Positions 4,801 through 39,946 are shown, counted from the stretch's first letter. The stretch: DNA of 64,000 nt from Heliomicrobium sp. (GCA_021155085.1 JAJNQA010000048.1:4023-68022), one strand, 5' to 3'. Translations and numbers: made by a program. Notes: generated by a model from the letters alone, not told the origin.

Positions 4801-5022
4801 CGTGGCGACGGAATTGCCAACATTGATTTCGGCATCTTCAAAAACACGAAGATTTTTGAAGGTCACAATCTGCAGTTCCGCGCCGAGTTCTTCAACCTGA
4901 CCAACACGCGCAACTTCGGCACGCCGAATACCGCGATCAACTCAGGGGCGAACTTCCTGAATCAATGGGCGACCAACGGCGGCAACCGCCGCATCCTGAT
5001 GGGCCTGCGCTACACCTTCTAA
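1810..5022 (+). CDS. TonB-dependent receptor with N-terminal CarboxypepD_reg-like domain (1070 aa)
   Basis: AGGAGG lies 5 nt upstream of the ATG. The signal peptide ends ...WHVNAQ. An N-terminal beta-sandwich module is present (ISGIVTDQQGAVVANAAVTARNVGT...GRYRFPSLSVGNYEITV). A plug-like region follows (NFSVNGMRLRSNNFMLDGQDSND), then a long barrel ending in RYTF. Confidence 0.9.
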   Translation: MKNTMKLMTALLALLIGVTWHVNAQSTAGAISGIVTDQQGAVVANAAVTARNVGTNESRSAMTDGEGRYRFPSLSVGNYEITVQARGFAKYIRTGVELLLNQEAVVNAPLKTSTVEEVVTINENASLLNTTNAEVSTRFDSKRLSELPLAPNRNVLNVALSAAGVSQLGSGQTGFAQGLNFSVNGMRLRSNNFMLDGQDSNDPSVSGSQQPINNPDVVQEFRLVTNQFAPEYGRAAGSVVNIVSKSGSNNFHGSGFWFNNNEVFNARSNLDKAAGFTDAPRRNENQFGGTLGGPIIKDKTFFFGSYQRWTDRQLGSGATINGVPTEAGRQILQAQAGSRPQVAALLKFLPAATTANNTSANFTLNNQTFTVPLGSLTSANSVAFNNHQWSGRVDHRFNDKHQINGRFFFNDENSGGTGQATPVGLANLVTTRNQSANIGFTSILSNSVVNEFRVAYQRFGSVTNAADPSSETIPSIEINQLGLIGFNAAATRTAIGLAVNLPQFRFNNTYQILDNLSWTRGSHAMKFGFDIRRVQVKSFFFPTIRGRLAYATLDSFVNDVAIASAINKPVPGGSEIQYYNWYDYFFYAQDEWKVRPNFSLTYGLRYETPGNSVGSLQPFNDAILAANGNNPVFRFRNPNRDTNNLQPRFGFNWRPDFGSDGVAGMLFGGDKTVIRGGYSRTNDYGFININLNVASAFPFVFALNPSLNNAYSNLLSAAAPPAANLPFITQTTVGADFRSPSADQFSLEVSRELSKDVVLRVGYVGTKGNGLFQTVDGNPVVRERTNRTDPAFLYNPTPTLTNQPRRVDLTRGVERLRCNCAQSIYHSLQVSVDKRLSKNFSAGVHYTWSTFIDTASEIFNPQPQGEVATPQDPYNLNADRARSSYDRPHRLTGNVVYEFPFFRDQAGAAGRFLGGWQANAFFTLQSGTPFTILNGADPAGTLQGIDALVGNAIRPNLNTTLDLSSMNLIEIRAAGGASLFSALTAGQRTGNIGRNTIRGDGIANIDFGIFKNTKIFEGHNLQFRAEFFNLTNTRNFGTPNTAINSGANFLNQWATNGGNRRILMGLRYTF

Positions 5023-5047: not shown

Positions 5048-5088
5048 CAAAGAGGGCTGGAAAGCGAATCGCTTTCCAGCCCTCTTTG
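5048..5088 (+). terminator. Rho-independent terminator after the second receptor gene
   Basis: The stem is agagggctggaaagcg / cgctttccagccctct (16 bp, 3 nt loop), followed by ttgctgttt. The stem begins with the same GAGGGCTG motif as the terminator at 1361. Confidence 0.7.
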
Positions 5089-6563: not shown

Positions 6564-6600
6564 GACAAAAAAAGGGCAAGCTGATTGCGCCTGCCCTTTC
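6564..6600 (-). terminator. Rho-independent terminator after the 170 aa secreted-protein gene
   Basis: On the minus strand the stem AAAGGGCA/TGCCCTTT is followed by a T-run (the A7 run at about 6564-6573 on the plus strand). It lies about 25 nt after the stop codon at 6624. Confidence 0.6.
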
Positions 6601-6623
6601 TAAACGATTCTTTTCCGGCTCGG

Positions 6624-7136
6624 TTACTGTTTATCGAAATAAAGCCTGAAAGTTTGCGTGCCCTGTGGCGACTGGCGAGTGCGCGTGATTTTCAAGGCAT
6701 CGCCGATCAATTGCCATTGTTCTTTGGTGGTAATGCTGGCGGGGGTGCCTCCGGCATCGCCCTTGATGGTGGAAATCAGTTCGAGCGTTTTGCTGCTTTC
6801 AATCCATCTGGCTTTCAGCTTCATGGTTCCGGCCAGCGGGCGGACGACTTCGGCTTCGGTTTCGCTGCCGTCCAGATGGTAATTCAATTCCTGCGACGGC
6901 TGTTCGCGGCCACGCAGCACGACTTTCTGTTCGGCGGAAAGTGATTTGGCGTCCTGGGCGACGACCAATCGGATTTCCGCGTTGCCAAGCTGACCGGTCA
7001 ACCCGGCGCTCTTTTCGCGATTCAACACCCAGGTTCCGGCGAATCTGGGCACAGCGGTTTTCTTTTGTCCGAACGCCGCCGCGCAAGGCAACGCCAGCGC
7101 TAATAAAACCAAAAGGCAAATCTTTTTTGAAAACAT
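6624..7136 (-). CDS. Small secreted hypothetical protein (170 aa), last gene downstream of the cassette array
   Basis: It has a clear signal peptide, MFSKKICLLVLLALALPCAAAFGQ. I recognise no family motif. The composition is beta-rich. Confidence 0.7.
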   Translation of the reverse strand: MFSKKICLLVLLALALPCAAAFGQKKTAVPRFAGTWVLNREKSAGLTGQLGNAEIRLVVAQDAKSLSAEQKVVLRGREQPSQELNYHLDGSETEAEVVRPLAGTMKLKARWIESSKTLELISTIKGDAGGTPASITTKEQWQLIGDALKITRTRQSPQGTQTFRLYFDKQ

Positions 7137-7195: not shown

Positions 7196-8917
7196 CTATT
7201 TCAGCGCGCCCGTAAGCTTCAAAATCACATCCGTCATTTTTTGACAGGCTTTCAATTCAACCTCGACTTTGACAATGTTGGGGGCTGCAGCATCTTGGCG
7301 CAGACGTAGGAGCTGGGTGAGTTTTTCGTCGGGAAACTCTTGCCGACGATCCGCCGATTCGTCTACGTGGATGCCGGTCGGCACCAGAACGTATTTGCCG
7401 GGCGCGAGATTGGTGAAGGCGAATGTTCCATCCTGGCGCACCTTCGCTTCAGCGTAACGCAGCATGTCTTCGGCGGCGTCCGCTTCGGCTGGCAGCGCCA
7501 GAATATGGACCGCAGGCGGTAGGGGTGTTTCCGGCGGGTTGATTTGCACCTTGCCGCGCACACTGGCCGCGCCTTCGGCCAGTGTGACGGTGACGCCGGT
7601 CAGTTTCTCGCCTTGTTTTAAGGTCACGCCGTTGCGCGCCAGGTCTCCGGCGGCGGGTGTTGCTGCTTTGACCGCAATGGATTTCACGTACAGGTTTTCG
7701 TTCGGCAAATTCACGGATAGCCGGTGACGCAACGGCTGCAAACGGTTCAGTGTGAATTCGCCTTTTTCGTTAACCGGGCTTTCGCTGGGGTTGGGTTTGA
7801 AAATCGGTTGGGCTCCGCCTTTCGGTTTTTCTTGCGGGCGGGCGAATAGGACGATTTCTTCGATCCTGGTTTTTGGCGCTTGATCGCAGGTAGCGGGCGA
7901 CGCTTCGATGACGACACGCCCGGCGAGGGAGCCCAAGGGGAGCATTCGCAATTCCAGGCCGGTCACGTCCGCGCCCCGAACAGTGACGCGGCGAGGTTGC
8001 GACATTAATTGGTCGGCAGCTTCGGGATCGTTCGTGGCGGCCAGTTCGTATTCGCCGTCCGGCACGCCGTAAAAATCAAAGCCTGCATCCTCGCCACCAC
8101 GATAGACCAGGCTGGTGGCGACCAGCGCGCCTGTGTTGACTTGCAGCAAAGACACATTGGCTTGCGCCGCGCCGCCGGTCACCTTGCCGCTGATGGCGTT
8201 GCCGCGTTCACCGCGAAAGCGTATGTCAATGCCGGTGATTTCCGCGCCGCTCGCGACCTGGACTTCGGCGGCGGTATCGCGCGTCGAAGACGGGTAATAG
8301 GTCGGCGCGTCGTTGTCGTACAGCGAAGCTTGCGAGCCGAAATACGGATTGCCTGTGTTGGCCAGGATGACGTAGCTTCCCGGCGTCAGTCCGTAAAAAC
8401 GATAAATCCCCCGGTCGTCGGTAAAGGCGCGCACGGCGGGCGAAGCGCTTTGTCCGGCGATTGGATTGCCTTCGGCATCGCGCACCTGAATTGCGCCCAG
8501 CGGCAGCGCGATCACCGGTTGGTTGTCGGGGTTGGTGACGCGGCCCGTAATGACGCCGCCCCGGATCATTGTCAGCGTGACGTTGTCGCCGATGTGCAGA
8601 TAACGCGGCTGGGCGCGTTCGGCGGTGGATGGCGGCGCGGAAACGTAAGCGCGTCCGCCTTCCGCGCGAATCGAATAAGCGCGCGGCGGCAAATCCGTAA
8701 AGCGGAAATTACCTTCGTCGTCCGTGGTGGTTGTTCGTGTCAGGGCGAAGCGGGTCACTCCGGCAGGCGTTAAACGGACAGTGAGACCGGGCAAGTTGCC
8801 GCCGTCTTCGGTGACGACGCGACCGCTGATGACGCCTTTGTTTGGCGATTGCGCCAGCGCCAGCGAAGAAATCGAAAGCAGTAAACACGCGACCGGCAGA
8901 ATTCGACCGAGCTTCAT
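7196..8917 (-). CDS. Secreted multi-CarboxypepD_reg-like repeat protein, type A, copy 1 (573 aa)
   Basis: It has a signal peptide ending ...SLALAQ and five beta-sandwich-like modules (GVISGRVV..., GGVITGRVT...DDRGIYRFYGLTPGSYVI, NAISGKVT..., GSLAGRVV..., AASVRGKVQ...). Two conserved Cys are present (ATCDQ and ELKACQ). Its ATG abuts the stop of the upstream gene (TAAATG). Confidence 0.85.
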   Translation of the reverse strand: MKLGRILPVACLLLSISSLALAQSPNKGVISGRVVTEDGGNLPGLTVRLTPAGVTRFALTRTTTTDDEGNFRFTDLPPRAYSIRAEGGRAYVSAPPSTAERAQPRYLHIGDNVTLTMIRGGVITGRVTNPDNQPVIALPLGAIQVRDAEGNPIAGQSASPAVRAFTDDRGIYRFYGLTPGSYVILANTGNPYFGSQASLYDNDAPTYYPSSTRDTAAEVQVASGAEITGIDIRFRGERGNAISGKVTGGAAQANVSLLQVNTGALVATSLVYRGGEDAGFDFYGVPDGEYELAATNDPEAADQLMSQPRRVTVRGADVTGLELRMLPLGSLAGRVVIEASPATCDQAPKTRIEEIVLFARPQEKPKGGAQPIFKPNPSESPVNEKGEFTLNRLQPLRHRLSVNLPNENLYVKSIAVKAATPAAGDLARNGVTLKQGEKLTGVTVTLAEGAASVRGKVQINPPETPLPPAVHILALPAEADAAEDMLRYAEAKVRQDGTFAFTNLAPGKYVLVPTGIHVDESADRRQEFPDEKLTQLLRLRQDAAAPNIVKVEVELKACQKMTDVILKLTGALK

Positions 8918-10627
8918 TTAATTGCCCTCCCTGCGGCTCAAATCGAGCGGCAAAATAACCGTCGCTTCGGCGTCGTTGGTGACGGTGACGCGCTGTTTGG
9001 TGTTGGCGATCAGTTTGGCGAGTTCGTCGTAACCGGGGAGCGTCTCATCGCCGCGCACGTAGGAACTCAGCACAATTTCGTATTCGCCGGGCGCGAGTTT
9101 TTCGATTCGGAACACGCCGGTCGGTTCAACCGGAACGGAATTACCCGACGCCAGACTGCTGTCCACGCGCCGTGCGCGCGCCATCAGTTGAACAAGGGCG
9201 GGCAAACTTCCACCGGCAGGTTTCACCTGCCCGCGCACCACGCCCGTTCCGAACCCCAGAATCACGCGCACGCCGGTGACGTTTTCGCCCGCGCCGACTT
9301 CGATTCCATCGCCAGCCAGCGCGCCTGCGTGTTCAATTCGCAGCAGCGAAAATCCGCGTCCTCGCGATTCCGAACCGAGCGTGATCGCCGCTTTGCCCGC
9401 TTGCAGGCCGTCAAACCGGAAGCTTCCATTGGCTGCGGGCCTGGTGTTATTGCGCGAATTGGGCGCAATCAATTGCGGTGACGTGATCGAAACAAAAAGT
9501 TGCAATTGCGTCAGCCGCGCCAGCAAGGCCGGATCGGAAATGCCTTCCAGCAGGGCGACGCCGCTGAGGGAGGCTCCACGGTGCAGCTTGATTTTCACGC
9601 CGGTCACGTCGCCATCGCCGATTTCAAACGCCACGGGCTCGCTGTAGGAAGGATCGGTTTTCTCCGGTTGGGCAAAGGCCAGATATTGGCCGGGCAGAAT
9701 GTTTTGAATCCTGAATTCGCCCTGGGAATTCGTGCGTTCTCCGGTCAGGGCGGAAGCTCCCATGGTTTGGCCGTTGTTGGTTTTGACGCCGTAGGAAACC
9801 GCGACATTTGCCGCCGGTTGGCCGTTTTCGGCGTAAACGACGCGGCCCGCCACATCGAAATTTTTCTTCAGTCCGCCGACGGTGATGTCCACGCCGGTGG
9901 TTTCGCGGCCTTCGGTCACTTCGACGATTTTGGCCTGGGCTTCGCTGGTGGCGTCCGGGTGATAAGTCTTGGGATAAAACGTTCGTTGCGTGGTCATCGC
10001 AATCGAGTTCGGACGCTGCTCGAATCCAACGCTGACCAGATAACGTCCCGCCGGCAAACCATACACGCGGTAAATGCCACGATCATCCGCGCTGTACAAG
10101 TTTCCGTTCGGTCCCAGAAAGACGCGCTCCGGTTTGCCCTGTTCGTTCAGGCGCCCCAGTTCCACGCCGTTGCCGACCAGCGGATTGCCGTTGGCGTCGC
10201 TCAAACGGCCCGTGATCACGCCGCCGAATTTCAGCGGGATTTCGTAGTTTTCGATGTTTTCGCCGTCAGCAATGTTGATGGCTTTGCCTTGCGGGCCGAA
10301 GCGGTTTTCGTTCGGCGAGACGTAACCGGGCGTAATCGCGCCCAGGTAATACAGCCCGGCTTTGACCTTTTCGATACGAAAGCGCCCGGCGTCATCGGTC
10401 TTCACGCGCAGGACGTTTTTCAACTCGAATCTGTTCGTGCGGCTGTCGGGCGACAGCGCGACAGTTGCGCCGCGCACGGGTTCGCCTTTCAGCGTGACCA
10501 CGCCGGAAACGGTGGCGGTGCCTTCTTTGATTGGCGTTTGGGCCAAGAGTGGAAAAGAAAGCGTTGCAAGCAGCAGGAATATAGCCGTGATGGGTTGGCA
10601 GGTTTGCATCATCAGTTTCCTCTTCAT
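8918..10627 (-). CDS. Secreted multi-CarboxypepD_reg-like repeat protein, type B, copy 1 (569 aa)
   Basis: It has a signal peptide ending ...FPLLAQ and five modules (TATVSGVVTLKGEPV..., GGVITGRLSDANGNPL...DDRGIYRVYGLPAGRYLV, FDVAGRVVYAENGQP..., GASLSGVALLEG..., TGVVRGQVKPAGG...). The mature chain has no Cys. Confidence 0.85.
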   Translation of the reverse strand: MKRKLMMQTCQPITAIFLLLATLSFPLLAQTPIKEGTATVSGVVTLKGEPVRGATVALSPDSRTNRFELKNVLRVKTDDAGRFRIEKVKAGLYYLGAITPGYVSPNENRFGPQGKAINIADGENIENYEIPLKFGGVITGRLSDANGNPLVGNGVELGRLNEQGKPERVFLGPNGNLYSADDRGIYRVYGLPAGRYLVSVGFEQRPNSIAMTTQRTFYPKTYHPDATSEAQAKIVEVTEGRETTGVDITVGGLKKNFDVAGRVVYAENGQPAANVAVSYGVKTNNGQTMGASALTGERTNSQGEFRIQNILPGQYLAFAQPEKTDPSYSEPVAFEIGDGDVTGVKIKLHRGASLSGVALLEGISDPALLARLTQLQLFVSITSPQLIAPNSRNNTRPAANGSFRFDGLQAGKAAITLGSESRGRGFSLLRIEHAGALAGDGIEVGAGENVTGVRVILGFGTGVVRGQVKPAGGSLPALVQLMARARRVDSSLASGNSVPVEPTGVFRIEKLAPGEYEIVLSSYVRGDETLPGYDELAKLIANTKQRVTVTNDAEATVILPLDLSRREGN

Positions 10628-10631
10628 GTGT

Positions 10632-10679
10632 GACAGGCTTGCGACCTGTCTACAGTGTGGACAGGCCGCAAGCCTGTCC
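10632..10679. repeat. Cassette-boundary double-hairpin element (GACAGGC..GCCTGTC x2)
   Basis: In gacaggcttgcgacctgtc-tacagtgtg-gacaggccgcaagcctgtc the outer 12-mers are exact reverse complements. The element lies between the type-A stop (10685) and the type-B start (10627). Confidence 0.7.
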
Positions 10680-10684
10680 TACAT

Positions 10685-12430
10685 TCATTTTGTCAGCACG
10701 TAATCCTTCAGGTGCTGGCAGGCTTTCAACTCGATTTCGTTTTTGTCGGCGTCCTTGCGCAGCCGGGCGCGGCCAGCAGTATCCCAGGCGGCGGGAACCG
10801 GCAGGCGGTTCGCGGGTTCATCGTCGGGAACAGCGCGCACCAGCAAGCGGTATTTGCCCGGCGCGAGATTTGTAAACGTGAATGCGCCGTCGTCGCCAAT
10901 CAAGGTTTCCGCGTAGCGCAGCACTTCGTCCGTTGCGGCCGGTTCCGCCGGAACCAGGTGAACGCGCAATCGGGAAGGCAGCTTTGCGCCCGCTTTGGCG
11001 GCGACTTTGCCGCGCAAACTGGCTGCGCCTTCGGCGATGGTGATGGCGACGCCGGAAAGTTTCTCGCCGGATTTCAGGGCTACGCCGGAGCGCGCCAGAT
11101 CGTTGGCGGCGGATTTGCCCGGCGCGCCAGTTCCCGTGCCGGAACCGGCGATGGATTTCACGAACCAGTTTTCGGTCGGCAGATTCGGACTCAGATGAAA
11201 CCTGCCTGGCGGCAGCGCGGTGATTTTGAACTCGCCTTTTTCATTGACCGAAAAAAAGGCCGGAAAAGAGCGCAGTGAGGAGAGCATGTCGGTGGGCTGC
11301 TCTTCGCGACGGGACCACAGCAGAACTTCCTGAATCGTGCTTTTGTCTTTTGGACATGGTGTGGGCGCTGTTTCCAGCGTCACGCGACCGGCAATCGAAC
11401 CCATCGGCAGCAATCGAAGCTCCAGGCCCGTCACGTCGCTGCCACGAACCGTGACGCGGCGCGGTTCAGTAAAAGAACTGCTTTCACCGTCGGCGCTGCC
11501 GCGATTCGCCTGCAGTTCATATTCGCCGTCGGGAACGCCCAGAAATGAAAAGCCGTTTTCGCCTTCGCCCGCGCGGGTGGACGTGCTGCCGGCAAGTATG
11601 CCGGAAGGCGAACTCAGCAGCATGACGCTCGACAGATAGGAAACCATCTCTGTGGAAGAGTCGCTGCCGCCGATGACTTTGCCGCTGACGATGTGGCCAC
11701 GGTCGCCGCGATGGCGGATGTCTATGCCGGAAATTTCGGCGCTTCCGGCGACCTGGACTTCGACGGCGGTGTCTCGCGTTGCTGAGGGATGGTAGGTCGG
11801 CGCGTCGCCATCGAAAGGCAATTGCGTGTTGGCGAACATCGAACCCCCGTAGTTGTTGGCAACCAGATACGTTCCGGGCGTCAACCCGTACAGCCTGTAA
11901 ATGCCGCGATCATCTGTCAGGCGCGTGCGGGAAGGCCCTGCCAATTGAACCGGACGGCCTTCAGCGTCGCGGACGCGAATCGCCGTGACAGAAACGCCGA
12001 TCATCGGGTCGCCGTTGGCATAAATCACCCTCCCGGTGATGACGCCGCCGCGAATCATCCGAAGTGCGATTTGGTCGCCCGGACGGTAGAGCGTCGCTGG
12101 CGTGTTGGCTGGGCGCTGTGGCGGCGAGTAAGCGCCGGATTCCATCACCGCCACGGAATAGGTGCGCGTCGGCAAATTGGTGAACTGAAAGTTTCCGTCG
12201 GCGTCGGTCACCACAATTTGCGGCGAACTGCCGCCGCTGCCGGCGGGCGCGGCAAACAGGCGAACGCTGACGCCGGACATTGGCGCGCCGTCGTCAGTGA
12301 CGACCTGGCCGGTAATGCTGCCGCGCTTTTGTTGGGCATTGACGGAGGCAAACAGGGAAAGAGCCAGAATCAACGCAAAAGGACAACGGTTCAAAAGATG
12401 ATGCAAATTGAATGTTAACGCGCGCTTCAT
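10685..12430 (-). CDS. Secreted multi-CarboxypepD_reg-like repeat protein, type A, copy 2 (581 aa)
   Basis: It is co-linear with 7196..8917 and shares the module-2 signature DDRGIYRLYGLTPGTYLV and the conserved Cys pair (PTPCPKD and ELKACQ). Its start overlaps the upstream stop (ATGA). Confidence 0.85.
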   Translation of the reverse strand: MKRALTFNLHHLLNRCPFALILALSLFASVNAQQKRGSITGQVVTDDGAPMSGVSVRLFAAPAGSGGSSPQIVVTDADGNFQFTNLPTRTYSVAVMESGAYSPPQRPANTPATLYRPGDQIALRMIRGGVITGRVIYANGDPMIGVSVTAIRVRDAEGRPVQLAGPSRTRLTDDRGIYRLYGLTPGTYLVANNYGGSMFANTQLPFDGDAPTYHPSATRDTAVEVQVAGSAEISGIDIRHRGDRGHIVSGKVIGGSDSSTEMVSYLSSVMLLSSPSGILAGSTSTRAGEGENGFSFLGVPDGEYELQANRGSADGESSSFTEPRRVTVRGSDVTGLELRLLPMGSIAGRVTLETAPTPCPKDKSTIQEVLLWSRREEQPTDMLSSLRSFPAFFSVNEKGEFKITALPPGRFHLSPNLPTENWFVKSIAGSGTGTGAPGKSAANDLARSGVALKSGEKLSGVAITIAEGAASLRGKVAAKAGAKLPSRLRVHLVPAEPAATDEVLRYAETLIGDDGAFTFTNLAPGKYRLLVRAVPDDEPANRLPVPAAWDTAGRARLRKDADKNEIELKACQHLKDYVLTK

Positions 12431-14097
12431 TTGTCATTCTCCTTTTGGCTGAGATCAACGACGAATTCGGTTTGCGTTTCGCCGCTGCTGACCGTGACGC
12501 GGTGAGAGGCTTTGGCGATTGACTCGAACAGCTTCACCATTTCGGGCGTCCGGTTGGCGGAGTAGCCAAAGAGTAGCAATTCGTATTCGCCTGCCACCAG
12601 ATTCTGCAAAACGAACTGATTGCGCGCGTCTACCGAGTTTGCGAATTCGCCGCCAGTTCCCGCGCCGGATCGTTTGGCGATGAGGGTCAGGTTCACGCCT
12701 TCCGGCAAAACTCCGCCGACGAATTTCACCTGCCCGCGAACCGTCGCCGTGCCGTGGCCGAAAATAACGCGAACGTTGGTGAGTTGTTCGCCCGCCTGAA
12801 GCTCCAATCCGTCGGTGACCGGCGCGCCATTATGTTCCACGCGCAGCAGTTTCAACCCGCCGGACGGCGAAAACGCCCGGATGTCCATTTTGCCGGGTTT
12901 TACGGCGGTGAAACGAAACGCGCCGTTGGCGCCGGGTCTGGCGCTGCGGCCACCGATCGCCGTGTCTCTTGAACGCGGATTCAGGTTCAGGTTGAGTTTC
13001 GACAACAGCCCGATGATCGCCGGGTCGCTGGAACCTTCGATCACGGCAAGTCCGCTGATGGAACCGCCGCGATGCGCCCTGATCTCGACGCCGCTGACAT
13101 CGTCACTGTTGATTTCGAAAGGAGCCGGGTCGCTGTAAAACTCGCTTTGCGGATTCGTGCGCGAATCGGCGAACGCGGCATATTTACCGGGCATTACGCC
13201 TTGCAGCACGTATTCGCCCTGCGCATCGGTCATGGCCATTCCCGATCCCCAATTGGTCATGTTGCCGGAAGCGTCCATCAGCCCGTAGCCGATGCGAATG
13301 CCCGCGACCGGTTTTCCGGTGGCGCTTTCCGTGACGCGGCCCGCGACATCGAAGGTTTTTTGGGCTTCACCGAGTTTGATGTCCACCTCCGCCGCTTCCG
13401 AGCCTTCGCTCAGTTCGATGATTTTGGCGCGGGCTTCATCGGTGGTGTCCGGGTGAAACGTCAGCGGGTAAACAATTCGGACTGGCCCGGTCATGGCGGC
13501 TTCATTGGCCAGATTTCCGGAACTGACTTTGTATTTTCCGGCGGGCAGGCTGTGAATCCGGTAAATGCCACGATCATCCGTGCGAAGCATTTCCCAACTG
13601 CCGCCGACGCTGTATCTGGCGAATGTGCCGCGCGCGTCCTGCTTCATCAGCCGGATTTCTTTTTCGACCAGCGGATTGCCCGTTGCATCTGTCAGCCGTC
13701 CGGTGATGACCGCGCCGCGCTTGAGCGCGAGTTCAATGCGTTCGATGGTTTCGCCGTCAGCCAGATTCAGCACCTTGCCGGGCGTGAACTGGGAATCACC
13801 GGCGGAGAGCAATCCGGGGGCGAGCGCCAGAATTCTGTATTGCCCGGCGTTCAACCGCGTGAATTGAAACCGGCCTTCGCTGTCGGTCTGCGCGCGCAAG
13901 TATTTGCTGCGGTCCGGGACGAATGGGCCGCTCGCCTGCTGCTGCGGCTGCAATCCGACGAAGACGCCGGCCGCCGGTTCGCCGTTCAGCAAAACTCGTC
14001 CGGTAATGTTCGCCGTGCCTTCTTTCGTTGGCGTTTGGGCGAGCAGGGAAAGGGAAAGCGCGAAAAACAGAATTGCAAACAGCTTGAGATTTGGCAT
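12427..14097 (-). CDS. Secreted multi-CarboxypepD_reg-like repeat protein, type B, copy 2 (556 aa)
   Basis: It is co-linear with 8918..10627. The signal peptide ends ...LSLLAQ. AGGAGG lies 4 nt upstream of the ATG. The product is Cys-free. Confidence 0.85.
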   Translation of the reverse strand: MPNLKLFAILFFALSLSLLAQTPTKEGTANITGRVLLNGEPAAGVFVGLQPQQQASGPFVPDRSKYLRAQTDSEGRFQFTRLNAGQYRILALAPGLLSAGDSQFTPGKVLNLADGETIERIELALKRGAVITGRLTDATGNPLVEKEIRLMKQDARGTFARYSVGGSWEMLRTDDRGIYRIHSLPAGKYKVSSGNLANEAAMTGPVRIVYPLTFHPDTTDEARAKIIELSEGSEAAEVDIKLGEAQKTFDVAGRVTESATGKPVAGIRIGYGLMDASGNMTNWGSGMAMTDAQGEYVLQGVMPGKYAAFADSRTNPQSEFYSDPAPFEINSDDVSGVEIRAHRGGSISGLAVIEGSSDPAIIGLLSKLNLNLNPRSRDTAIGGRSARPGANGAFRFTAVKPGKMDIRAFSPSGGLKLLRVEHNGAPVTDGLELQAGEQLTNVRVIFGHGTATVRGQVKFVGGVLPEGVNLTLIAKRSGAGTGGEFANSVDARNQFVLQNLVAGEYELLLFGYSANRTPEMVKLFESIAKASHRVTVSSGETQTEFVVDLSQKENDK

Positions 14098-14150
14098 TGG
14101 CTGACCTCCTGAAAAAGTTATAAGTGGTTTTTGACGCGCTGGAAAACGTG

Positions 14151-14188
14151 GGACAGGCTTGCGGCCTGTCTACACTGTGGACAGGCCC
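14151..14188. repeat. Cassette-boundary element, second (partly truncated) copy
   Basis: The sequence ggacaggcttgcggcctgtc-tacactgtg-gacaggcc has the same core and the same position (type-A stop to type-B start) as 10632..10679. Its right arm is shortened. Confidence 0.65.
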
Positions 14189-14192
14189 CGTC

Positions 14193-15980
14193 CTACATTT
14201 GGTTTGGCAGCGCGAGATCTTTGATGCGCTGGCAGGCTTTCAATTCGATTTCGTGTTTGGCGGCTTCGGCGTCTTTGCGCAGTTGAGCGCGGCTGGCTGC
14301 GTCCCAAGCCAGCGGATTCGCTTGCCGTTCGATTTCGTCGCTGTCGGGAAGCGCGCGCGTCAGCAGAAAATATTTCCCCGGCGGGATATTCCGGAAGCCG
14401 AATTCGCCGGTTTTGCTGGCGCGGCTTTCAGCGTAACGCAGCAGCTCATTCGCCGCCGCCGGTTCCGCCGGAATCAGATGAACCTGTAATCGCGATGGCA
14501 GCGGCGCGCCTTCTTTGGCCGCGACTTTTCCCTGTAACGTCGCGCCGCCGTCGCTGACGGCGACGGTCACATCGGAATATCGTTCCGCCGCCTTCAACGC
14601 CAGGCCGCTGCGGCTCAATTCGGCGGTCACGCCGGAACGCACCGGAACGCCTCGGCTGGATAGAGAGATGACCGGGCCGCTGATGGATTTCACAAACCCG
14701 GTTTCGTTTCGCAAACCAGCGGTCAGGCGGTAACGGCCCGGCGTCAACCGCGTGATTTTGAATTCGCCTTGTTCATTCGGCGAACCGCTTCCGTAGGGAA
14801 CCTGCCGGCGGGAAAGCGGTTTGGCGTTGGCGCGTTCGTCGTAAGTTGCAAAGAGGGACATTTCCCCGACGCTGATTTTCCGCTTCGGATCGCAAACCGA
14901 GGCCGATTTTTCAAGCGAGACACGCCCATAAACGATGGCCAGGGAAATCATTGGCAAATCCAGGCCGCTGACATCCGCGCCTTTGACCGTGATGCGGCGG
15001 GGTTCGGACGCGAACATTTCATCGGATTCGGAATTGCCGTAACGCGCCTCCAATTCATATTCGCCATCGGGAACGCCTTGCAGCGCGAAGGTGGATTCGC
15101 CAAGGCCTTTCTGAACGAAGGTGTTGGCGGCAGTGATGCCGGTGGTTGCATCCCGCAGCGTAACGCTCGCGCTGGTATTCAGTAGCGCGAGTTCAGCGCC
15201 GGAGATTTTGCCGCTGACAGTGCGTCCGCTTTCGCCGCGGTGGCGAATGTCCACGCCGGAGGTTTCGCTGCCGCCGCTGACTTTGACTTCGGCGGCGGTG
15301 TCGCGCGTGGATGACGGATGATAGGTCGGCGTTTCGCCATGAAAAGGGGACAACCCAGGCACGACAATAGACTGCCCGCCATTGGCGACGACAATGTAGG
15401 TTCCCGGTTGCAAGCCATACAAACGGTAAATGCCCCGGTCATCCGTGGCGCGCGGAAAGCTGTTGTTGGAGGCGTTGATCTTTTTGTCTTCTTCGTTGCG
15501 GATGCGAATGGCGGAAACCGAAATACCGACGATGGGGTCGCCGTTCGGATCGCTGACGCGGCCCGTGATGACGCCGCCTTTGCGCATGGTGATGGTGACG
15601 GTTTCGCCCGGACGCAAATTGCCCAGTTTGACGGGACCGGCCAGGATGTAGCCTTTCTGAATGCTGAGCGAAATGTTGTAGCTCCGATCCGAAAGATTGT
15701 TGAACTGGAAATTGCCATCCGCGTCCGTGGTCGTTGAGCGGGACGTGCTTTGCGCACTGCCTGATGACAAATGAACGCCGTAATCAGCCAGCGGTTTGCC
15801 GCCATCGGCGACGATGCGGCCACGGATGGAACCGCTTTCCTGGCCGTAAGCCGCTCCCGATGCCAGCAGCCATACGAATAGCCATAGAATTCCGAGAGGT
15901 GTCAGCCGCCGGGTAGAAACAGTCCGGTATGGCCATTTCCCATGATTCTTTTTGCACTCGAAACTTGTCTTGCTTGGCAT
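14193..15980 (-). CDS. Secreted multi-CarboxypepD_reg-like repeat protein, type A, copy 3 (595 aa)
   Basis: It is co-linear with the other type-A genes (DDRGIYRLYGLQPGTYIV; Cys pair ASVCDPK and ELKACQ). The N-terminus before the hydrophobic signal segment is longer. Its ATG lies 2 nt after the upstream stop. Confidence 0.8.
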   Translation of the reverse strand: MPSKTSFECKKNHGKWPYRTVSTRRLTPLGILWLFVWLLASGAAYGQESGSIRGRIVADGGKPLADYGVHLSSGSAQSTSRSTTTDADGNFQFNNLSDRSYNISLSIQKGYILAGPVKLGNLRPGETVTITMRKGGVITGRVSDPNGDPIVGISVSAIRIRNEEDKKINASNNSFPRATDDRGIYRLYGLQPGTYIVVANGGQSIVVPGLSPFHGETPTYHPSSTRDTAAEVKVSGGSETSGVDIRHRGESGRTVSGKISGAELALLNTSASVTLRDATTGITAANTFVQKGLGESTFALQGVPDGEYELEARYGNSESDEMFASEPRRITVKGADVSGLDLPMISLAIVYGRVSLEKSASVCDPKRKISVGEMSLFATYDERANAKPLSRRQVPYGSGSPNEQGEFKITRLTPGRYRLTAGLRNETGFVKSISGPVISLSSRGVPVRSGVTAELSRSGLALKAAERYSDVTVAVSDGGATLQGKVAAKEGAPLPSRLQVHLIPAEPAAANELLRYAESRASKTGEFGFRNIPPGKYFLLTRALPDSDEIERQANPLAWDAASRAQLRKDAEAAKHEIELKACQRIKDLALPNQM

Positions 15981-15982
15981 GG

Positions 15983-17680
15983 CTATTTCTCCTGGCTGAG
16001 GTCAACCGTCAACGATGTTTGGGTTTCGATGCCATCGCTGACCGTCACAAGCTGTTTGACGGCGGCCAGCCGGGGGAAAATCTTCGTCACCATCTCATTG
16101 GTCGGTTTGCCGGTGACGCCATACTGGAGCCGAACTTCGTATTGGCCGGGAACCAAATCCTTAATGATGAAATGTCTGCGTTCGTCGAGCAAAGCGGGAA
16201 CAAGACCGAAGGTATGGTTTTCCGTGCGCCTCAGGTTGACAGATAACCGAATGCCTTCGGGAAGCTCCGCGCCGATGATTTTTACCTGTCCGCGCACGAT
16301 TCCTTCGCCGTAGCCGTAAACAATGCGAATGTCTTTGACCTGTTCGCCGGGGCGAATCTCGAACTCCCTGGTTTTCAATGGCACGCCGTTTCTTTCGACG
16401 CGGAGCAGGGAAGCTTTGAATAATTGGGAATAGCCGGACAACCTGACCTTGCCCGGTGGCAAGCCGACGACGCGGAAACTGCCGTCCGCTCCGACCTTGC
16501 CGGTGCGCGCTCCGGTGAAGGCCGCAGTTGATGAAAATGAGGCTTCGAGTGAAATCTGCGAGCGTCTGGCCAGCACTGCCGGATCGTTTGTGCCTTCGAT
16601 GACGACCGTGCCGCTGATCGAAACCCCGTGCCGTGCTCGGACTTCGACTCCGGCAACGTCGCTGTCAATGATTTCGACAGCCGCCGGCTCGCTGTAGAAA
16701 TCGGTTTTGCCTTCGCGATTTTCAATGAAAATGCCGTGCCTGCCCGGACGCGCACCCAGAATTTGAAACTCGCCCTTGGCGTCGGTGCGCGCGCCGCTTG
16801 TATAACCCATCATTCGCCCGTCCTGATTGAACGTGCCGAACGCCAGACTCGTCCCGGCGACCGGCTGTCCGGTTTCGGCATCCACCACGCGCCCGGAAAT
16901 TTCATAGGCTTTCACCGCTTCCGCGGTTTTGATGTCCACGTCGGAGGCTTCCTGGCCTTCTTCCAGTTCGATAACTTTGGCCAGGGCTTCGTCGTTGGTG
17001 TCGGGGTGAAAGGTTTCCGGAATGTAGGTGCGGGAGGTACGCATCGTGAAGGCATTCGCTCGGACAGGTACTCCCACGCTGACTTTGTATTTGCCTGGGG
17101 GTAAACCGTAGATACGGTACACGCCGCGATCATCGGTTCGATACATCATTGAGCTGGACACCGTATTCATCGGCGGACGCCAGGGCGTGGACTGTCCGGC
17201 GGAATTGATCTGGCTCAATTGAATAGTGGTTTCGATCAGCGGTTCGCCGCTGGCGCCGGTGACGCGGCCCGTAATGACGCAGCCGCGTTTGAGCGTCAGT
17301 TCCAGATTTTCAATGGTTTCGCCGTTCGCGACGCTGATCGTCTTGCCCTGGATTCCGAAGCCTGACTGATTGAGTTGATTGCCTTCCGTCACAAATGCGG
17401 ACGCCAGCGCGCCGATGGTGTATTGTCCGGCGGCGATGCCCGCGATGCGAAATCGCCCGTTGGCGTCGGTTTTCGCGCGCGGCGGAACGGGCTGGCTGGA
17501 ACCGTAGGAATTGATCGCTTGCACGGTGACGACGACATTGCGCATCGGTTCGCCGTTCAAGGTGACGACGCCCGCGATGGTCGCCGCGCCTTCTTTGGGC
17601 GGCGTTTGCGCAAGCAGATTGAATGACAATGCGGAAACGAAAAGCAGGAAAACCCGGCTGAATCTGAGTGCTGGCATCAT
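15983..17680 (-). CDS. Secreted multi-CarboxypepD_reg-like repeat protein, type B, copy 3
   Basis: It is co-linear with the other type-B genes. I place the start at the ATG at 17680, with GGAGG 6 nt upstream, giving MMPALRFSRVFLLFVSALSFNLLAQ. The ORF-track start at 17698 is a TTG lying on the RBS. Confidence 0.8.
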   Translation of the reverse strand: MMPALRFSRVFLLFVSALSFNLLAQTPPKEGAATIAGVVTLNGEPMRNVVVTVQAINSYGSSQPVPPRAKTDANGRFRIAGIAAGQYTIGALASAFVTEGNQLNQSGFGIQGKTISVANGETIENLELTLKRGCVITGRVTGASGEPLIETTIQLSQINSAGQSTPWRPPMNTVSSSMMYRTDDRGVYRIYGLPPGKYKVSVGVPVRANAFTMRTSRTYIPETFHPDTNDEALAKVIELEEGQEASDVDIKTAEAVKAYEISGRVVDAETGQPVAGTSLAFGTFNQDGRMMGYTSGARTDAKGEFQILGARPGRHGIFIENREGKTDFYSEPAAVEIIDSDVAGVEVRARHGVSISGTVVIEGTNDPAVLARRSQISLEASFSSTAAFTGARTGKVGADGSFRVVGLPPGKVRLSGYSQLFKASLLRVERNGVPLKTREFEIRPGEQVKDIRIVYGYGEGIVRGQVKIIGAELPEGIRLSVNLRRTENHTFGLVPALLDERRHFIIKDLVPGQYEVRLQYGVTGKPTNEMVTKIFPRLAAVKQLVTVSDGIETQTSLTVDLSQEK

Positions 17681-17841
17681 TGGAATTCCTCCGATCAATT
17701 GCTGATGGATCAGGTTGTAAAACTTGCGAGAGGGCTTGGTGAAATTTTGACAGGCGGATTGTATTCAGCTTGTAGCGGCGAGGCCAGCTTTTTCATAGTA
17801 TTCTCCGCGTCCAAAACATTTTTTCAGGGAAACATCCAACA

Positions 17842-19035
17842 ATGCTGACAGCGGATTTAGCGATAGCTTTTCAACGCGGCGACCGCATTCAGCCGCGCCG
17901 TCTGGAGCCGGACGACGCGCATTTGAGCGTTGCCGAAGACCTCATCCGCATTTTCGCGGAGCATCTCACTTTGCGCCGCGCCGAACTGAATCGGTCATTG
18001 GACGAATACGTCGGCACGGGGACCGATTACAGAATCCTGCGCGGGATGATCAAGCTGCTGATGGATGTGTGCGAGTTCCAGACCGGCGCCGACATCGTAC
18101 CGGAGCAGCTTCGCCAAAAGCTGTTTCTGAAAGCCAAAGCGCATCACCCGGTGACGCCCGCGCTTCGCCGGCAGCTTCTAGCCGAAGTTGCCGAAGAATT
18201 GGGGGCGGAGGCGGAAACCATCGCGGCCAGCCTCTACGCCGACTTGACGGACAATCAACGCCTGATTGCGTTTGACGCGCCAGAGGCGGCGGGCTTGATT
18301 GACTGTTATAACCTGGCGCAGGCGCAGGCGCTGCTGTATCGCTGCGTCGAGATGCGGTTGACGGTTCAGCCGCAGGAGGTGGCCGGGTATCGCCAGTTGT
18401 TTGCGGCAATCAAACGCTACGATCTGATTCACACGATCAAAGGGCGGGCTGACCGGGGCTATGAAGTTGTTTTGAGCGGGCCAGTTTCGCTTTTTCACCG
18501 CTCGCAAAAGTACGGCATTCGGATGGCGGTGTTTCTGCCCGCGCTGTTGGAATGTTCGGGCTGGCGAATGCGCGCGGAGATTGAAACCAAACGCGGCAAT
18601 GCGTTTTTTGAACTCAGCAGCGAGCAGAAAAATTTGCCGATGTTGCCGGAAGCGGCCTGGATGGGCGGCGGGGAATTACTGGAAAAGTTTTTAACGGCGT
18701 GGACGAAGCTTCAAAGCCAGTGGCGGGCTGAAACCTGCCGGGAAGTGATTGATCTGGGCGGCACGGCGTTCGTGCCCGACGCGGTGCTGGAAGATGCAAC
18801 AGGCCGGAAAGTCTACGTCGAATTGTTTGGCTTCTGGACGCCGCGTTATCTGAAAGACCGGCTGGAAGAGTTCGCGCGCGGCGGTTTTACAAACTTTGTG
18901 CTGCTGGTGTCGGAGGAATTGCGCGGCAGCCGCGAAGCGCCCGCCAATCTGCCGCCGAACGTCGTCAGTTATAAAACTTCGCCGGATGCGCGCACGGTGC
19001 TGGCGGCGGTGGAACACATTCAGCAACTCATCTGA
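17842..19035 (+). CDS. DUF790 / Bax1-like nuclease family protein (397 aa)
   Basis: The N-terminal pattern MLTADL...RIQPRRLEPDD...AEDLIRIF...RRAELNRSLDEYVGTGTDYRILRGMIKLLMD.CEF matches my memory of DUF790. The C-terminal part looks like a restriction-endonuclease fold (FVPDAVLED...KVYVELFGFWTPRYLKDRLEEF). Confidence 0.75.
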   Translation: MLTADLAIAFQRGDRIQPRRLEPDDAHLSVAEDLIRIFAEHLTLRRAELNRSLDEYVGTGTDYRILRGMIKLLMDVCEFQTGADIVPEQLRQKLFLKAKAHHPVTPALRRQLLAEVAEELGAEAETIAASLYADLTDNQRLIAFDAPEAAGLIDCYNLAQAQALLYRCVEMRLTVQPQEVAGYRQLFAAIKRYDLIHTIKGRADRGYEVVLSGPVSLFHRSQKYGIRMAVFLPALLECSGWRMRAEIETKRGNAFFELSSEQKNLPMLPEAAWMGGGELLEKFLTAWTKLQSQWRAETCREVIDLGGTAFVPDAVLEDATGRKVYVELFGFWTPRYLKDRLEEFARGGFTNFVLLVSEELRGSREAPANLPPNVVSYKTSPDARTVLAAVEHIQQLI

Positions 19036-19052: not shown

Positions 19053-19823
19053 CTACTTCGTCACTCCGCGCTGGGACCTTTCGATGAATTCGATCAGGTA
19101 ATCAATTTCGGGAGAGCCAGCCATTTCGGTTTTGAGCTGTTCGAGCGCCTGTGACGTGTTCAGTTTGGAGGTCAGCAGAATATGGAACGCATGCTGGATG
19201 CGGCGGATCGCTTCGTTGGAAAAACCTTTGCGGCGCAGCCCGACGGCATTCGCGCCGTAACACTTCGCCTCCGTGCCGTCTGTGCGGGCGTAGGGCAGGG
19301 CGTCCTTGACGATTTTCGACATGCCGCCGATGAAAGCGTGCGAGCCGATGCGGCAGAACTGATGCACGCCGACAAATGCGCCGAGAATGATGTCGTCTTC
19401 AATGGTCACATGCCCGGCCAGCGACGCCAGATTGGCAAAGACGTTGCGCGAACCGACGATGGAATCGTGTGCGACGTGGGCCTGGGCCATAAACAGATTG
19501 TCGTCGCCAACGGAGGTCAGTCCGCCGCCGCCGACGGTGCCGCGATTCATGGTGACGGATTCGCGTATGACATTGCGCTGGCCGATGATCAGGCGGGTTT
19601 CCTCGCCCTTGTACTTCAAATCCTGCGGCGGCTGCCCCAATGAAGCGAACGGATAAATCTGCGTACCCTGGCCAATTTCGCAAGGGCCGGCGATGACGAC
19701 ATGGCTGGCGATTTCCACCTGATCGTGAATGACGACCTGTTCACCAATGATCGAATAGGGGCCGACGCTGACCTCTGCGCCAAGCTCGGCTTTGGAACTG
19801 ATAATTGCGGTTGGATGAATCAT
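19053..19823 (-). CDS. lpxA: Acyl-ACP--UDP-N-acetylglucosamine O-acyltransferase
   Basis: It has left-handed beta-helix hexapeptide repeats, an MIHPTAIIS... N-terminus, and lpxD-fabZ-lpxA synteny. The start is set at the ATG at 19823. The upstream extension to 19856 runs through a palindromic repeat. Confidence 0.9.
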   Translation of the reverse strand: MIHPTAIISSKAELGAEVSVGPYSIIGEQVVIHDQVEIASHVVIAGPCEIGQGTQIYPFASLGQPPQDLKYKGEETRLIIGQRNVIRESVTMNRGTVGGGGLTSVGDDNLFMAQAHVAHDSIVGSRNVFANLASLAGHVTIEDDIILGAFVGVHQFCRIGSHAFIGGMSKIVKDALPYARTDGTEAKCYGANAVGLRRKGFSNEAIRRIQHAFHILLTSKLNTSQALEQLKTEMAGSPEIDYLIEFIERSQRGVTK

Positions 19824-19827
19824 AAAG

Positions 19828-19892
19828 TTTGTAGTCCCGCCCTGAGGCGGAAGCATCGCTAACCAGAAATGCCGGCTGAAGCCGGTACTACG
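19828..19892. repeat. REP-like palindromic element (GTAGTCCCGCC-CTGA-GGCGG ... GCCGGCTGAAGCCGGTACTAC)
   Basis: Two short GC hairpins sit between fabZ and lpxA, and the second overlaps the fabZ stop codon. The element shares the 16-mer CGGGACTACAAACTTT, in reverse orientation, with 5874..5892. Confidence 0.6.
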
Positions 19893-20334
19893 AACTTACT
19901 TTTTTGTGTTTGTCTGCAATTGCGGAGGAAATGACGGCTTCGGCTGCTAACTGGCCCTCAACATAAGCTTCGGCGCGCAGCTTGGCGTATCCCATTTTGT
20001 ATTTCAGCACGGTGACTTCCAGCCGCAGTTGATCCCCTGGAACCACCGGGCGGCGGAATTTGGCTTCTTCGATGCCGGTGAAAAACAGCAGCTTGCTTTC
20101 GCGGTCGGGAACTTCGCGAAAGAGCAACACGGCTCCGGCCTGGGCCATGGCTTCGATGATGTAAACGCCGGGATAAACCGGCGCGCCGGGAAAATGGCCT
20201 TGAAAGACCTGTTCGTTCATGGTGACGTTCTTGATCGCCACGATCTTTTTCAGGGGTTCAAGTTCGATGACACGGTCAATCAGCAGCATTGGATAACGAT
20301 GCGGGATGATTTGTTGAATTTCGTTGATGTCCAT
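19888..20334 (-). CDS. fabZ: 3-hydroxyacyl-ACP dehydratase
   Basis: It has FabZ hot-dog motifs (IPHRYPMLLIDRV, FQGHFPGAPVYPGV), a size of 148 aa, and the expected synteny. Confidence 0.92.
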   Translation of the reverse strand: MDINEIQQIIPHRYPMLLIDRVIELEPLKKIVAIKNVTMNEQVFQGHFPGAPVYPGVYIIEAMAQAGAVLLFREVPDRESKLLFFTGIEEAKFRRPVVPGDQLRLEVTVLKYKMGYAKLRAEAYVEGQLAAEAVISSAIADKHKKVSS

Positions 20335-20374
20335 AAGTCAGTCTTCGTGGGTGGTGACTGGCAACCGGATCAGT

Positions 20375-21421: not shown

Positions 21422-21523
21422 AACAAATGCAGAACGCTGAACAACGGGCAATGCGCATTCGCGGTTATCACTCGCCGTTCAGCGTTCGACTTTCAACGCC
21501 AGAGATGTGGGATGGATTGGCGG

Positions 21524-22150
21524 TTACTTCTTCGGAGCCGCGGTTCCGCCGGTGTTGATTTTGTTGAACTCCTTCATGAAGTCTTCCGTGATGTCGGTCG
21601 CGGTCGAAGCCCACAGCAGGACGCCGGCTTGTTGAACCGCGCCGCCTTCCATCACCATCACGATGCCGCGTTGCTGGCAATAGGAATCGAGGAACTTCAT
21701 GATTTTGTCGGAGACGGGTTGATAGGCTTCCGCCAGGCGTTTTTGACCGAGGGCTTCATAATCTTCGGCCAGGCGCTTGAGTTTTTTCTCTTTTTCCGTG
21801 CCTTCGTCCACCCATTGGGCGCGAACTTGAGCGCTGACGGTCGGACCTTGCGTCTGGATCTTGTTCTTCAGATTGTTGACTTCTTCTTCCAGAGACTGGA
21901 CTTCCTTTTTCTTCGGCTCGAATTCCTTGTTGAGCGCATCAATTCTTTCTTTCAGCTCGAAGATGCCATCGCGAAAGCGAGAACTGTTGAGGTAGGCCAG
22001 TTTCCCCTCGGCCCCTGTGCCGCCGGCCGCGGATGCGGCTGCCGGCGCCGCGTTGCTGGCTGCCGGGCGGGCGGGCGGCGTCGGCGTTTGCGCGAATGCC
22101 ACCGCTGAGAGCGCGGCGGTGACGGCGAATGCAAAAATCAATCTCTTCAT
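21524..22150 (-). CDS. skp: OmpH/Skp-family periplasmic chaperone
   Basis: It has the signal peptide MKRLIFAFAVTAALSAVAFAQ and a coiled-coil-rich, lysine-rich body. It lies between bamA and lpxD. AGGAG precedes the ATG at 22150. Confidence 0.8.
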   Translation of the reverse strand: MKRLIFAFAVTAALSAVAFAQTPTPPARPAASNAAPAAASAAGGTGAEGKLAYLNSSRFRDGIFELKERIDALNKEFEPKKKEVQSLEEEVNNLKNKIQTQGPTVSAQVRAQWVDEGTEKEKKLKRLAEDYEALGQKRLAEAYQPVSDKIMKFLDSYCQQRGIVMVMEGGAVQQAGVLLWASTATDITEDFMKEFNKINTGGTAAPKK

Positions 22151-22257
22151 TTTCTTCACACTCCTAACAAAAATATCTGACAAACCTGCGGTTTGTCGCG
22201 AGTTGCTAATCGGAAAACCTGCCGGAGACAATCCGTCTGCCGGATGCTGGCCTGCCG

Positions 22258-39238: not shown

Positions 39239-39946
<708 letters not shown>

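Follow-up and report, generated by a model that had tools for sequence, protein, structure and literature searches.

Paralogous genes that lie side by side and encode the partners of one complex are known from protocatechuate 3,4-dioxygenase, whose PcaH and PcaG are encoded by an adjacent alpha/beta gene pair and form a heteromer with a core in the same Pfam clan as the proteins described here. The domain type of these proteins, PF13620 (CarboxypepD_reg), is found in TonB-dependent transporters of the Oar subclass, where it is a periplasmic N-terminal extension; one such transporter mediates protein secretion (PMC6434023). Here we analysed a stretch of 64,000 nucleotides (the window) deposited as Heliomicrobium sp. 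(GCA_021155085.1, JAJNQA010000048.1:4023-68022), which carries three tandem copies of a two-gene cassette. Each cassette encodes a B-type and then an A-type protein, and both types have a signal peptide and five PF13620-like modules. With few exceptions, related loci bore the label Blastocatellia or Acidobacteriota. Blastocatellia, a class of soil Acidobacteria, abound in soils and biocrusts, and to our knowledge their envelope biology is almost wholly uncharacterised.

A first-pass annotation, made from the window alone, had described the three cassettes and proposed an A:B heteromer. The best explanation of the whole, which we favour on balance from the sequence comparisons below, would be a seven-gene operon with translationally coupled cassettes, in which each A pairs with its cognate B to form a non-enzymatic component of the cell envelope.

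Gene order and junctions of the array

Six long open reading frames (ORFs) lie head-to-tail on the minus strand (7196-17698) and are transcribed in the order B3-A3-B2-A2-B1-A1 (Table 1). This reading recovered the six genes and three B-A cassettes of the first-pass annotation. The junctions within the pairs were also read exactly as claimed, with TAGccATG at B3/A3, an ATGA overlap at B2/A2 and TAAATG at B1/A1. A TTG at 17698 is likewise open as a start of B3.

The start of B1 is more likely the second ATG (10612). This ATG has AAGAGGAAA 3 nt upstream, and it is the start called by the gene caller in a near-identical strain (L081; B2 98% identical, same array layout). The first ATG is without a Shine-Dalgarno (SD) sequence. 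The second spacer between cassettes is therefore probably 72 nt long. The gaps had been given as 95 nt and 57 nt; the former stands, and the latter is right as read but probably too short. Similarly, the fresh ribosome-binding site that had been placed in the gaps exists before B2 (AGGAGG), but that of B1 lies inside what had been counted as B1 coding sequence.

The region is probably one operon, composed of B3-A3-B2-A2-B1-A1 and a small gene of predicted calycin fold. Since the small gene follows A1 after 59 nt and a terminator comes next, a transcription unit of seven genes is suggested. In the 161-nt region upstream of B3, no match to the sigma-70 consensus was found.

Properties of the A and B proteins

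The A and B proteins are about 58-62 kDa each, with a Sec type-I signal peptide and five modules. All six N-termini have a positive n-region, a hydrophobic core and an AxA/Q-type signal peptidase I site (slash, cleavage). PF13620 was the top Pfam match in all six (E 4e-25 to 4e-29, 85-101 bits, gathering threshold 32.3 bits), with two or three separately significant stretches per protein, which makes them members of this family. The remaining Pfam matches overlapped PF13620 and belonged to other beta-sandwich families, mostly transthyretin-like. The A2 structure predicted by AlphaFold2 from 28 homologues has five beta-sandwich modules, after which a short helix and two strands form the C-terminal end (predicted local distance difference test score, pLDDT, 80; predicted template modelling score, pTM, 0.74). 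These results agree with the Sec signal peptides and five CarboxypepD_reg-like modules that had been noticed before.

Global identity among the six proteins was 41-49% for A/A, 42-46% for B/B and 28-30% for A/B. The earlier impression by eye, that the copies are only about half identical, was thus confirmed by the all-versus-all alignment. In a profile-profile comparison, A and B aligned collinearly along about 475 columns and had different C-terminal tails. Conservation is highest in module 2 for both types and, in A, is high in module 5 and the C-terminal tail as well; B as a whole is conserved about as well as A. The module-2 sequence DDRG[IV]YR, which had been called a signature, is indeed tightly conserved, but it is a form of the generic core motif of the domain family and not a separate signature. 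The isoelectric points (pI) of A and B are near neutral to basic.

Every mature A chain of the window contains exactly two cysteines, one in module 4 and one in the conserved C-terminal ELKACQ tail. Among 346 distinct A proteins, 337 have this pair and a single one has neither Cys. Of the three B proteins in the window, B2 lacks Cys, B3 contains C134, and the only Cys of B1 belongs to the signal peptide; across related proteins, 62 of 102 B chains were Cys-free. The pattern originally reported, two Cys per mature A and a B that is Cys-free or nearly so, therefore holds.

No enzyme, anchor, usher or transporter family was matched by the six proteins in Pfam and NCBIfam, consistent with the earlier description of the array, and NCBIfam gave no family-level match for them. 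Neither an LPxTG motif (LPx[TAS]G) nor a lipobox is present in the six proteins.

The B-A cassette in related genomes

Eighty related loci were collected, and every ORF was classified with A and B profile hidden Markov models (HMMs). The order B then A, on one strand, was found in essentially every one of them (individual loci are cited as L001 and so on). The full tally of gene order covered 81 loci, with one to at least five pairs in each. Most loci have one pair, many have two to four, and L001 and L002 have five. The view that the B-A unit is a maintained module is well borne out by this adjacency survey. In L020 (1017-11716) and L053 (6368-11773), two full-length B-like genes precede one A; with a two-class A/B model, the lower-scoring 'B' genes of such B-B-A loci may represent a third paralogue class.

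The junctions inside and between the pairs are of different kinds. Among 118 B-to-A junctions, 65 were ATGA overlaps and 12 TGATG overlaps, and about 90 lay within -11 to +12 nt. The 54 A-to-B gaps vary widely in length; their median is close to 30 nt, and the longest measures several hundred. Of 95 tight junctions, 85 had an SD-like tetramer within the final codons of B, 4-16 nt ahead of the A start codon (background within B coding sequence, 8%), and the consensus of this embedded site is AGGAGGA at -13 to -7. Because the SD sequence sits in the last B codons, the conserved C-terminus of B (DLSQKE-type) would double as the ribosome-binding site of A. Kept gene order, overlapping stop and start codons and an SD sequence in the first gene, which we took as the marks of a translationally coupled pair, were all found here, in line with the coupling proposed earlier.

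The family is large. Of 8,000 candidates scored against A2, over 2,000 reached E <= 1e-10, and searching with B2 gave 759 proteins. With the A profile, 6,163 clusters at 50% identity were collected (E <= 1e-30); B-type proteins, and perhaps other relatives, are part of this number. The homologues came from Blastocatellia, Pyrinomonadaceae, Chloracidobacterium and unclassified Acidobacteria; among cultured Blastocatellia, Pyrinomonas, Blastocatella and Chloracidobacterium have them. Where the sources give a name, it is 'carboxypeptidase regulatory-like domain-containing protein', 'MSCRAMM family protein', 'collagen binding domain-containing protein' or 'protocatechuate 3,4-dioxygenase beta subunit'.

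Two possible fusion proteins were observed. P0344 (1121 aa) has A and then B in a single reading frame, and P0461 (841 aa) has a truncated B fused to A; they were the only B-A fusions among the best 150 representatives and could be frameshift or assembly artefacts. Several metagenome-assembled genomes (MAGs) with related loci carry the labels uncultured Heliomicrobium sp., Heliobacteriaceae or Clostridia (L007, L009, L012, L013, L014, L019, L022, L023, L037 and L070). Their loci are closest to Blastocatellia cassettes, so these Bacillota labels look wrong.

Co-inheritance of A and B and the three isoforms

The distances among A proteins and those among their B partners were strongly correlated (r=0.84 over 102 complete pairs), and none of 999 permutations reached this value. 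Wherever assignment to a window cassette was unambiguous, A and B agreed. Orthologues of B2-A2 were found as the second pair of L001, L008, L009, L010 and L016 (54-59%), those of B1-A1 in L025 (77% for A, 66% for B) and those of B3-A3 in L015 and L011 (52-56%). Since these orthologues are closer than the paralogues within the window, the triplication is old and the isoforms have been maintained, as the first-pass annotation had supposed; its idea of three variants also fits the cassette-specific orthologues. Judged by these relationships, the three cassettes are distinct, anciently diverged isoforms with orthologues elsewhere.

The array itself is fluid. In the MAG DAOLKO01, relatives of the first and the last cassette are on different contigs, and each of these contigs carries one of the two flanks of the window.

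Proposed pairing of A with B

It is well supported by these comparisons that A and B would be a stoichiometric, co-inherited pair. The most economical reading of such a pair would be an obligate A:B heteromer, and we consider a heteromer probable because the B-A order is kept, the junctions are coupled, the SD sequence is embedded and A and B diverge together. In the mechanism that we propose, B would be translated first. A would then be made by termination-reinitiation in a fixed ratio to B, with its ribosome-binding site in the last B codons and its start overlapping or abutting the B stop. After export, A would be stapled by a disulfide between the invariant Cys of module 4 and that of the C-terminal tail, which would imply an oxidising extracytoplasmic compartment. 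A would pair with its cognate B to give a pseudo-symmetric heteromer, and this could have a structural or binding role, without enzymatic activity, in the cell envelope. Gene structure, coupling layout, export signals, domain composition, conservation, co-inheritance and the operon end are read from the sequences, whereas the disulfide, the complex of A with B, its place in the envelope and its function are inferred.

Several observations weigh against this picture. Net charge showed no complementarity between an A and its cognate B (rho +0.23). Some loci have a B-B-A triplet or a single B trailing the array, and strict 1:1 pairing is therefore not universal. The sequences do not separate periplasm from cell surface. 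Finally, the ATP-binding cassette (ABC) system of the ABC-2/GldG/DUF4340 type that stands head-to-head with many B-A arrays (see below) is absent from the 64 kb window and from most single-pair loci.

The first two of these points would also suit A and B as co-expressed but independent binders, where coupling would mean co-regulation of monomers or homo-oligomers, for example in the periplasm or at the surface with different ligands; beta-sandwich repeat proteins, moreover, are often monomeric stalks. However, co-regulation needs no fixed B-A order, ATGA overlaps and embedded SD sequence at about 40% protein identity, and the cassettes were duplicated and inherited as units. We hold independent binding to be unlikely, though worth keeping in mind. 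B might instead be a dedicated periplasmic assembly factor or chaperone for A and not its permanent partner, a role that would fit the fixed translation of B before A and the restriction of the predicted disulfide and the conserved C-terminal tail to A. But B equals A in size and architecture and about equals it in conservation, and chaperones are usually smaller and shared among clients, whereas each A has its own co-diverging B. A chaperone role for B is accordingly highly improbable.

With the cognate heteromer kept as the preferred reading, its default location would be the periplasm, because no known outer-membrane sorting signal was present in the six proteins. Secretion by a type II system or an Oar-type transporter is conceivable.

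The hairpin element of the spacers

A palindromic element of about 41 nt with GACAGGC/GCCTGTC arms lies at 10626-10684 and 14145-14185. Within the window, it is confined to the two A-to-B spacers. The copy in the short spacer forms a hairpin with a stem of about 20 bp (-43.1 kcal/mol, z -8.2), and the long spacer has a partial copy only. The element is kept in the near-identical strain with 2-3 substitutions. Its sequence was not found in the spacers of other genomes, some of which have unrelated hairpins after the A stop. The conserved hairpin described earlier is thus real in both gaps of the window, but its sequence is not conserved beyond it in other genomes.

A conserved regulatory RNA was rejected for this element, which had no Rfam family match and a sequence unshared with other genomes. 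A genome-wide repetitive extragenic palindromic (REP) element was likewise rejected, as the 64 kb window holds no further copies. The hairpin may act locally in processing or stabilising the transcript.

Flanking genes and the TonB-receptor link

The flanks of the array are summarised in Table 1. On the receptor side lie the small secreted protein, a MarR regulator, a methyltransferase and two Oar-type receptor genes; the small protein, MarR and receptors had been listed by the first-pass annotation, and the methyltransferase and the genes on the other side are added here. The complete receptor gene (1810-5022) encodes an N-terminal PF13620 domain. After it, a perfect 20-nt inverted repeat (5048-5088) looks like a terminator. 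On the other side, the DUF790/lpx/bamA-type flank also adjoins a single orthologous B3-A3-type pair in L015.

Table 1. Features of the array and its surroundings. Positions refer to the window unless a related locus is named; a slash in a peptide marks the cleavage site.
Feature	Position	Strand	Remarks
Oar-type TonB-dependent-transporter-like genes (two)	4-1329; 1810-5022	+	PF25183 barrel
Intrinsic terminator	6569-6601	-	13-bp stem and U tract; 23 nt past the small gene; probable operon end
Small secreted protein, predicted calycin type, 170 aa	6624-7136	-	Seventh gene; 59 nt 3' of A1
A1, A-type subunit, 573 aa	7196-8917	-	Cys344 and Cys558; start abuts B1 stop
B1, B-type subunit	8918-10627	-	569 aa from first ATG; more likely 564 aa from ATG 10612
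A2-B1 spacer, 57 nt	10628-10684	-	Occupied by near-perfect hairpin; 72 nt if B1 starts at 10612
A2, A-type subunit, 581 aa	10685-12430	-	Cys359 and Cys571; ATGA overlap with B2 stop
B2, B-type subunit, 556 aa	12427-14097	-	Cys-free
A3-B2 spacer, 95 nt	14098-14192	-	Partial palindrome copy 14145-14185, then AGGAGG 7 nt ahead of B2 ATG
A3, A-type subunit, 595 aa	14193-15980	-	Cys363 and Cys583; start 2 nt past B3 stop
B3, B-type subunit, 565 aa from ATG	15983-17680	-	Signal peptide ...NLLA/QTPPKEG, then five CarboxypepD_reg-like modules
Intergenic region 5' of B3, 161 nt, divergent	17681-17841	-	GGAGG before ATG; presumed promoter region
DUF790 gene	17842-19035	+	Divergent from B3
lpxA, fabZ, lpxD, two ompH/skp, bamA	19053-25910	-	Beyond DUF790
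Calycin-family members	L002 19091-19615; L082 5046-5558; L083 8001-8507		Homologues of window 6624-7136

The first-pass annotation had seen the pairs as surface or envelope scaffolds accessory to TonB-dependent uptake, like SusE/F beside SusC/D. The two receptor genes are indeed only 2-7 kb away in the window and bear an N-terminal PF13620 domain, the domain type that also builds A and B and that Oar-type transporters use as their periplasmic extension. But only 6 of 78 loci have a homologue of the window receptors within 10 kb, and such homologues were rare among the nearest neighbours. In addition, the window receptors are on the opposite strand, beyond MarR, the methyltransferase and a terminator, and there is neither a lipobox in the proteins nor a SusD-like gene. 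The proposed uptake link was thus not upheld, and we regard an accessory role in TonB-dependent uptake as very unlikely.

The other flanking genes gave no better partner. MarR was linked in 4 of 78 loci, the methyltransferase in 4 and the lpx/bamA block in 1, and each of these linkages, like that of the receptor, was rejected as restricted to a few syntenic relatives. When Pfam families were counted for the two closest genes to either side of about 55 loci, no partner dominated.

Elsewhere in the window are two divergent DUF885 genes (35128-36786, minus strand; 37165-39144, plus strand), which are unrelated to the array. Beside them is a MacB-type efflux operon (39239-43846, minus strand) with an ABC ATPase, an HlyD-family adaptor and two MacB_PCD/FtsX permeases.

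The predicted calycin gene and the GldAFG-like operon

The small seventh protein had no Pfam, NCBIfam or Protein Data Bank (PDB) sequence match. Its structural model (pLDDT 87) is a ten-stranded barrel, and the best fold matches were fatty-acid/bile-acid-binding proteins, tardigrade SAHS, nitrobindin and avidins. The protein is therefore predicted to belong to the calycin group. Its gene also follows the last A gene in 11 other loci, and the family comprises 93 clusters and occurs on contigs that also bear A/B genes.

A second recurrent neighbour is a four-gene operon for an ABC ATPase, an ABC-2 permease, a DUF7088 plus ABC_transp_aux protein and a DUF4340 protein. The best NCBIfam matches of the first three were GldA, GldF and GldG, all far below the equivalog cut-offs, and PF09822 was matched as well. 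This operon is directly divergent from the first B gene in L008-L011, L044, L045, L054 and L075, and the ATPase gene takes the same divergent position at the contig edge in L002 and L033. In L072, L016 and L007, genes of the system lie co-directionally upstream of the array. The association thus extends to about 13 loci whose A clades are only 41-45% identical to one another. The calycin gene follows the ABC operon, directly or after one gene, in two distant contigs.

Since the window and most single-pair loci are without the ABC-2 system, the association may be partly inherited synteny. The first cassette next to the ABC operon is an orthogroup absent from the window. With that orthogroup and the ABC system both missing, the window array looks like a derived portion of a larger arrangement. 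The ancestral layout looks like [DUF4340 <- GldG-like <- ABC-2 <- ATPase] <-> [B-A cassettes -> calycin]. Literature searches returned nothing on DUF4340.

The head-to-head GldA/F/G-like ABC-2 and DUF4340 genes, with the same calycin gene at the array end, appear to be the best functional lead. Tentatively, and with considerable doubt, heterodimeric A:B rods and a secreted ligand-binding calycin barrel could work with this ABC-2/DUF4340 system in moving or displaying a hydrophobic component of the envelope or surface. If so, a previously unrecognised Blastocatellia envelope system would be represented in the window by three of its isoform cassettes and by the calycin gene.

Comparison with known systems

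Family and literature searches found no curated family or paper on the coupled B-A cassette, on its arrays or on its link to the GldAFG-like/DUF4340 genes and the calycin gene. This is consistent with the earlier statement that no system with this organisation has been described. The A/B family is lineage-wide, with one to many copies per genome, and its public names are generic or wrong. Annotators gain a definable pair, an A with a Cys pair and an ELKxCQ tail and a B with an N-terminal Q and a DLSQKE-type end. The pair would offer a concrete heteromer for experimental work and would show neatly, in nature, how the conserved C-terminus of a protein can also encode a ribosome-binding site. Its recurrence beside a GldAFG-like ABC-2/DUF4340 operon and a secreted calycin may likewise be a route into the function of these uncharacterised components. 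The interest is limited by the fact that A and B are built from common domains.

The best Foldseek matches of A2 were Cna-B stalks, namely the SdrD B repeats, Cna B1B2, SpaA, BcpA and TIE proteins (E 1e-13 to 1e-8). Both kinds are strings of small beta-sandwiches, and PF17210 and PF17802 scored above their cut-offs in window proteins. In contrast to these stalks, the window proteins have no LPxTG/sortase signal, and their host is diderm, with BamA, LpxA and LpxD encoded nearby. An MSCRAMM or sortase-anchored identity was rejected, as the six proteins have no LPx[TAS]G and no sortase or pilin-motif family match. No whole-chain fold relative of the A2 model was accepted either; only single domains matched Cna-B, pilin and MG-domain structures, with whole-chain TM (template modelling) scores below 0.2.

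Such matches raise the question of an extracellular polymer, in which A and B would alternate in a two-component surface layer (S-layer), a fibre or an MSCRAMM-like adhesin and the isoforms would provide surface diversity. The adhesin and pilin repeats among the fold matches would fit, as would a domain-level match to SlaB of the two-component Sulfolobus S-layer, a weak match of B3 alone to the anammox S-layer family NF052345 (Kustd1514; 19.7 bits, cut-off 1400), the NCBI name 'MSCRAMM family protein' of some homologues, and the multi-copy divergent paralogues that are typical of surface structures. However, these fold matches are single-domain only, and no sortase motif, usher, chaperone, beta-barrel or known outer-membrane sorting signal was found. 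Moreover, the orthologues are conserved and not hypervariable, and the near-neutral to basic pI differs from the acidic values common in S-layers. A polymer is quite unlikely in our judgement, and the cognate envelope heteromer remains the reading that we prefer.

Other candidates were rejected on similar grounds. For a chaperone-usher or fimbrial system, no usher or chaperone family was present in the array, the window flanks or the neighbours of about 55 loci. For an alpha-2-macroglobulin (A2M) or thioester protein, A2M chains matched with TM below 0.12 only, and the C-terminal Cys is in ELKACQ, not CxEQ, and would pair with the second invariant Cys.

SusE and SusF are also non-catalytic multi-beta-sandwich proteins, and in this one window A and B are likewise near TonB-dependent receptor genes. 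Unlike SusE/F, A and B are neither lipoproteins nor partnered by SusC/D, and their linkage to receptors is not conserved. With no SusD-like family among the neighbours, both a SusE/F-like identity and the analogy drawn in the first-pass annotation were discarded. Oar-type transporters share PF13620 with A and B, and so does the neighbouring receptor gene at its N-terminus, but here five modules are the whole mature protein, without plug or barrel, and come as coupled paralogous pairs. GldA/GldF/GldG of Flavobacterium, a gliding-associated ABC-2 transporter, are the best NCBIfam matches of the operon that stands head-to-head with many B-A arrays; the differences are the low scores, the extra DUF4340 gene and the absence of this operon from the window.

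The sole PDB sequence match of A2 was NOMO2 (9c7v_B, a subunit of the BOS complex), at a marginal E of 0.008, and B2 had no match in the same search. Several NOMO-domain Pfam models also matched weakly, and both proteins are non-enzymatic beads-on-a-string. NOMO, however, is a single membrane-anchored chain of the eukaryotic endoplasmic reticulum lumen with about 12 transthyretin/Ig-like domains, and the likeness is at domain level only.

The resemblance to PcaH/PcaG is one of gene organisation, with two collinear paralogues side by side. PF00775 scored above its cut-off on module 2 of B2 and B3, and JGI names many A/B homologues 'protocatechuate 3,4-dioxygenase beta subunit'. In contrast, A and B have five domains, are predicted to be exported and have no conserved His for the iron site. 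An intradiol dioxygenase was therefore rejected: the PF00775 match covered only profile positions 31-102 of 182, the invariant columns held no conserved His for a 2-Tyr/2-His site, and TIGR02422/02438 scored 15-25 bits against cut-offs of 296-404. At the domain level, A and B are ordinary members of the CarboxypepD_reg/transthyretin clan, and their kind is a known one, that of secreted tandem beta-sandwich repeat proteins.

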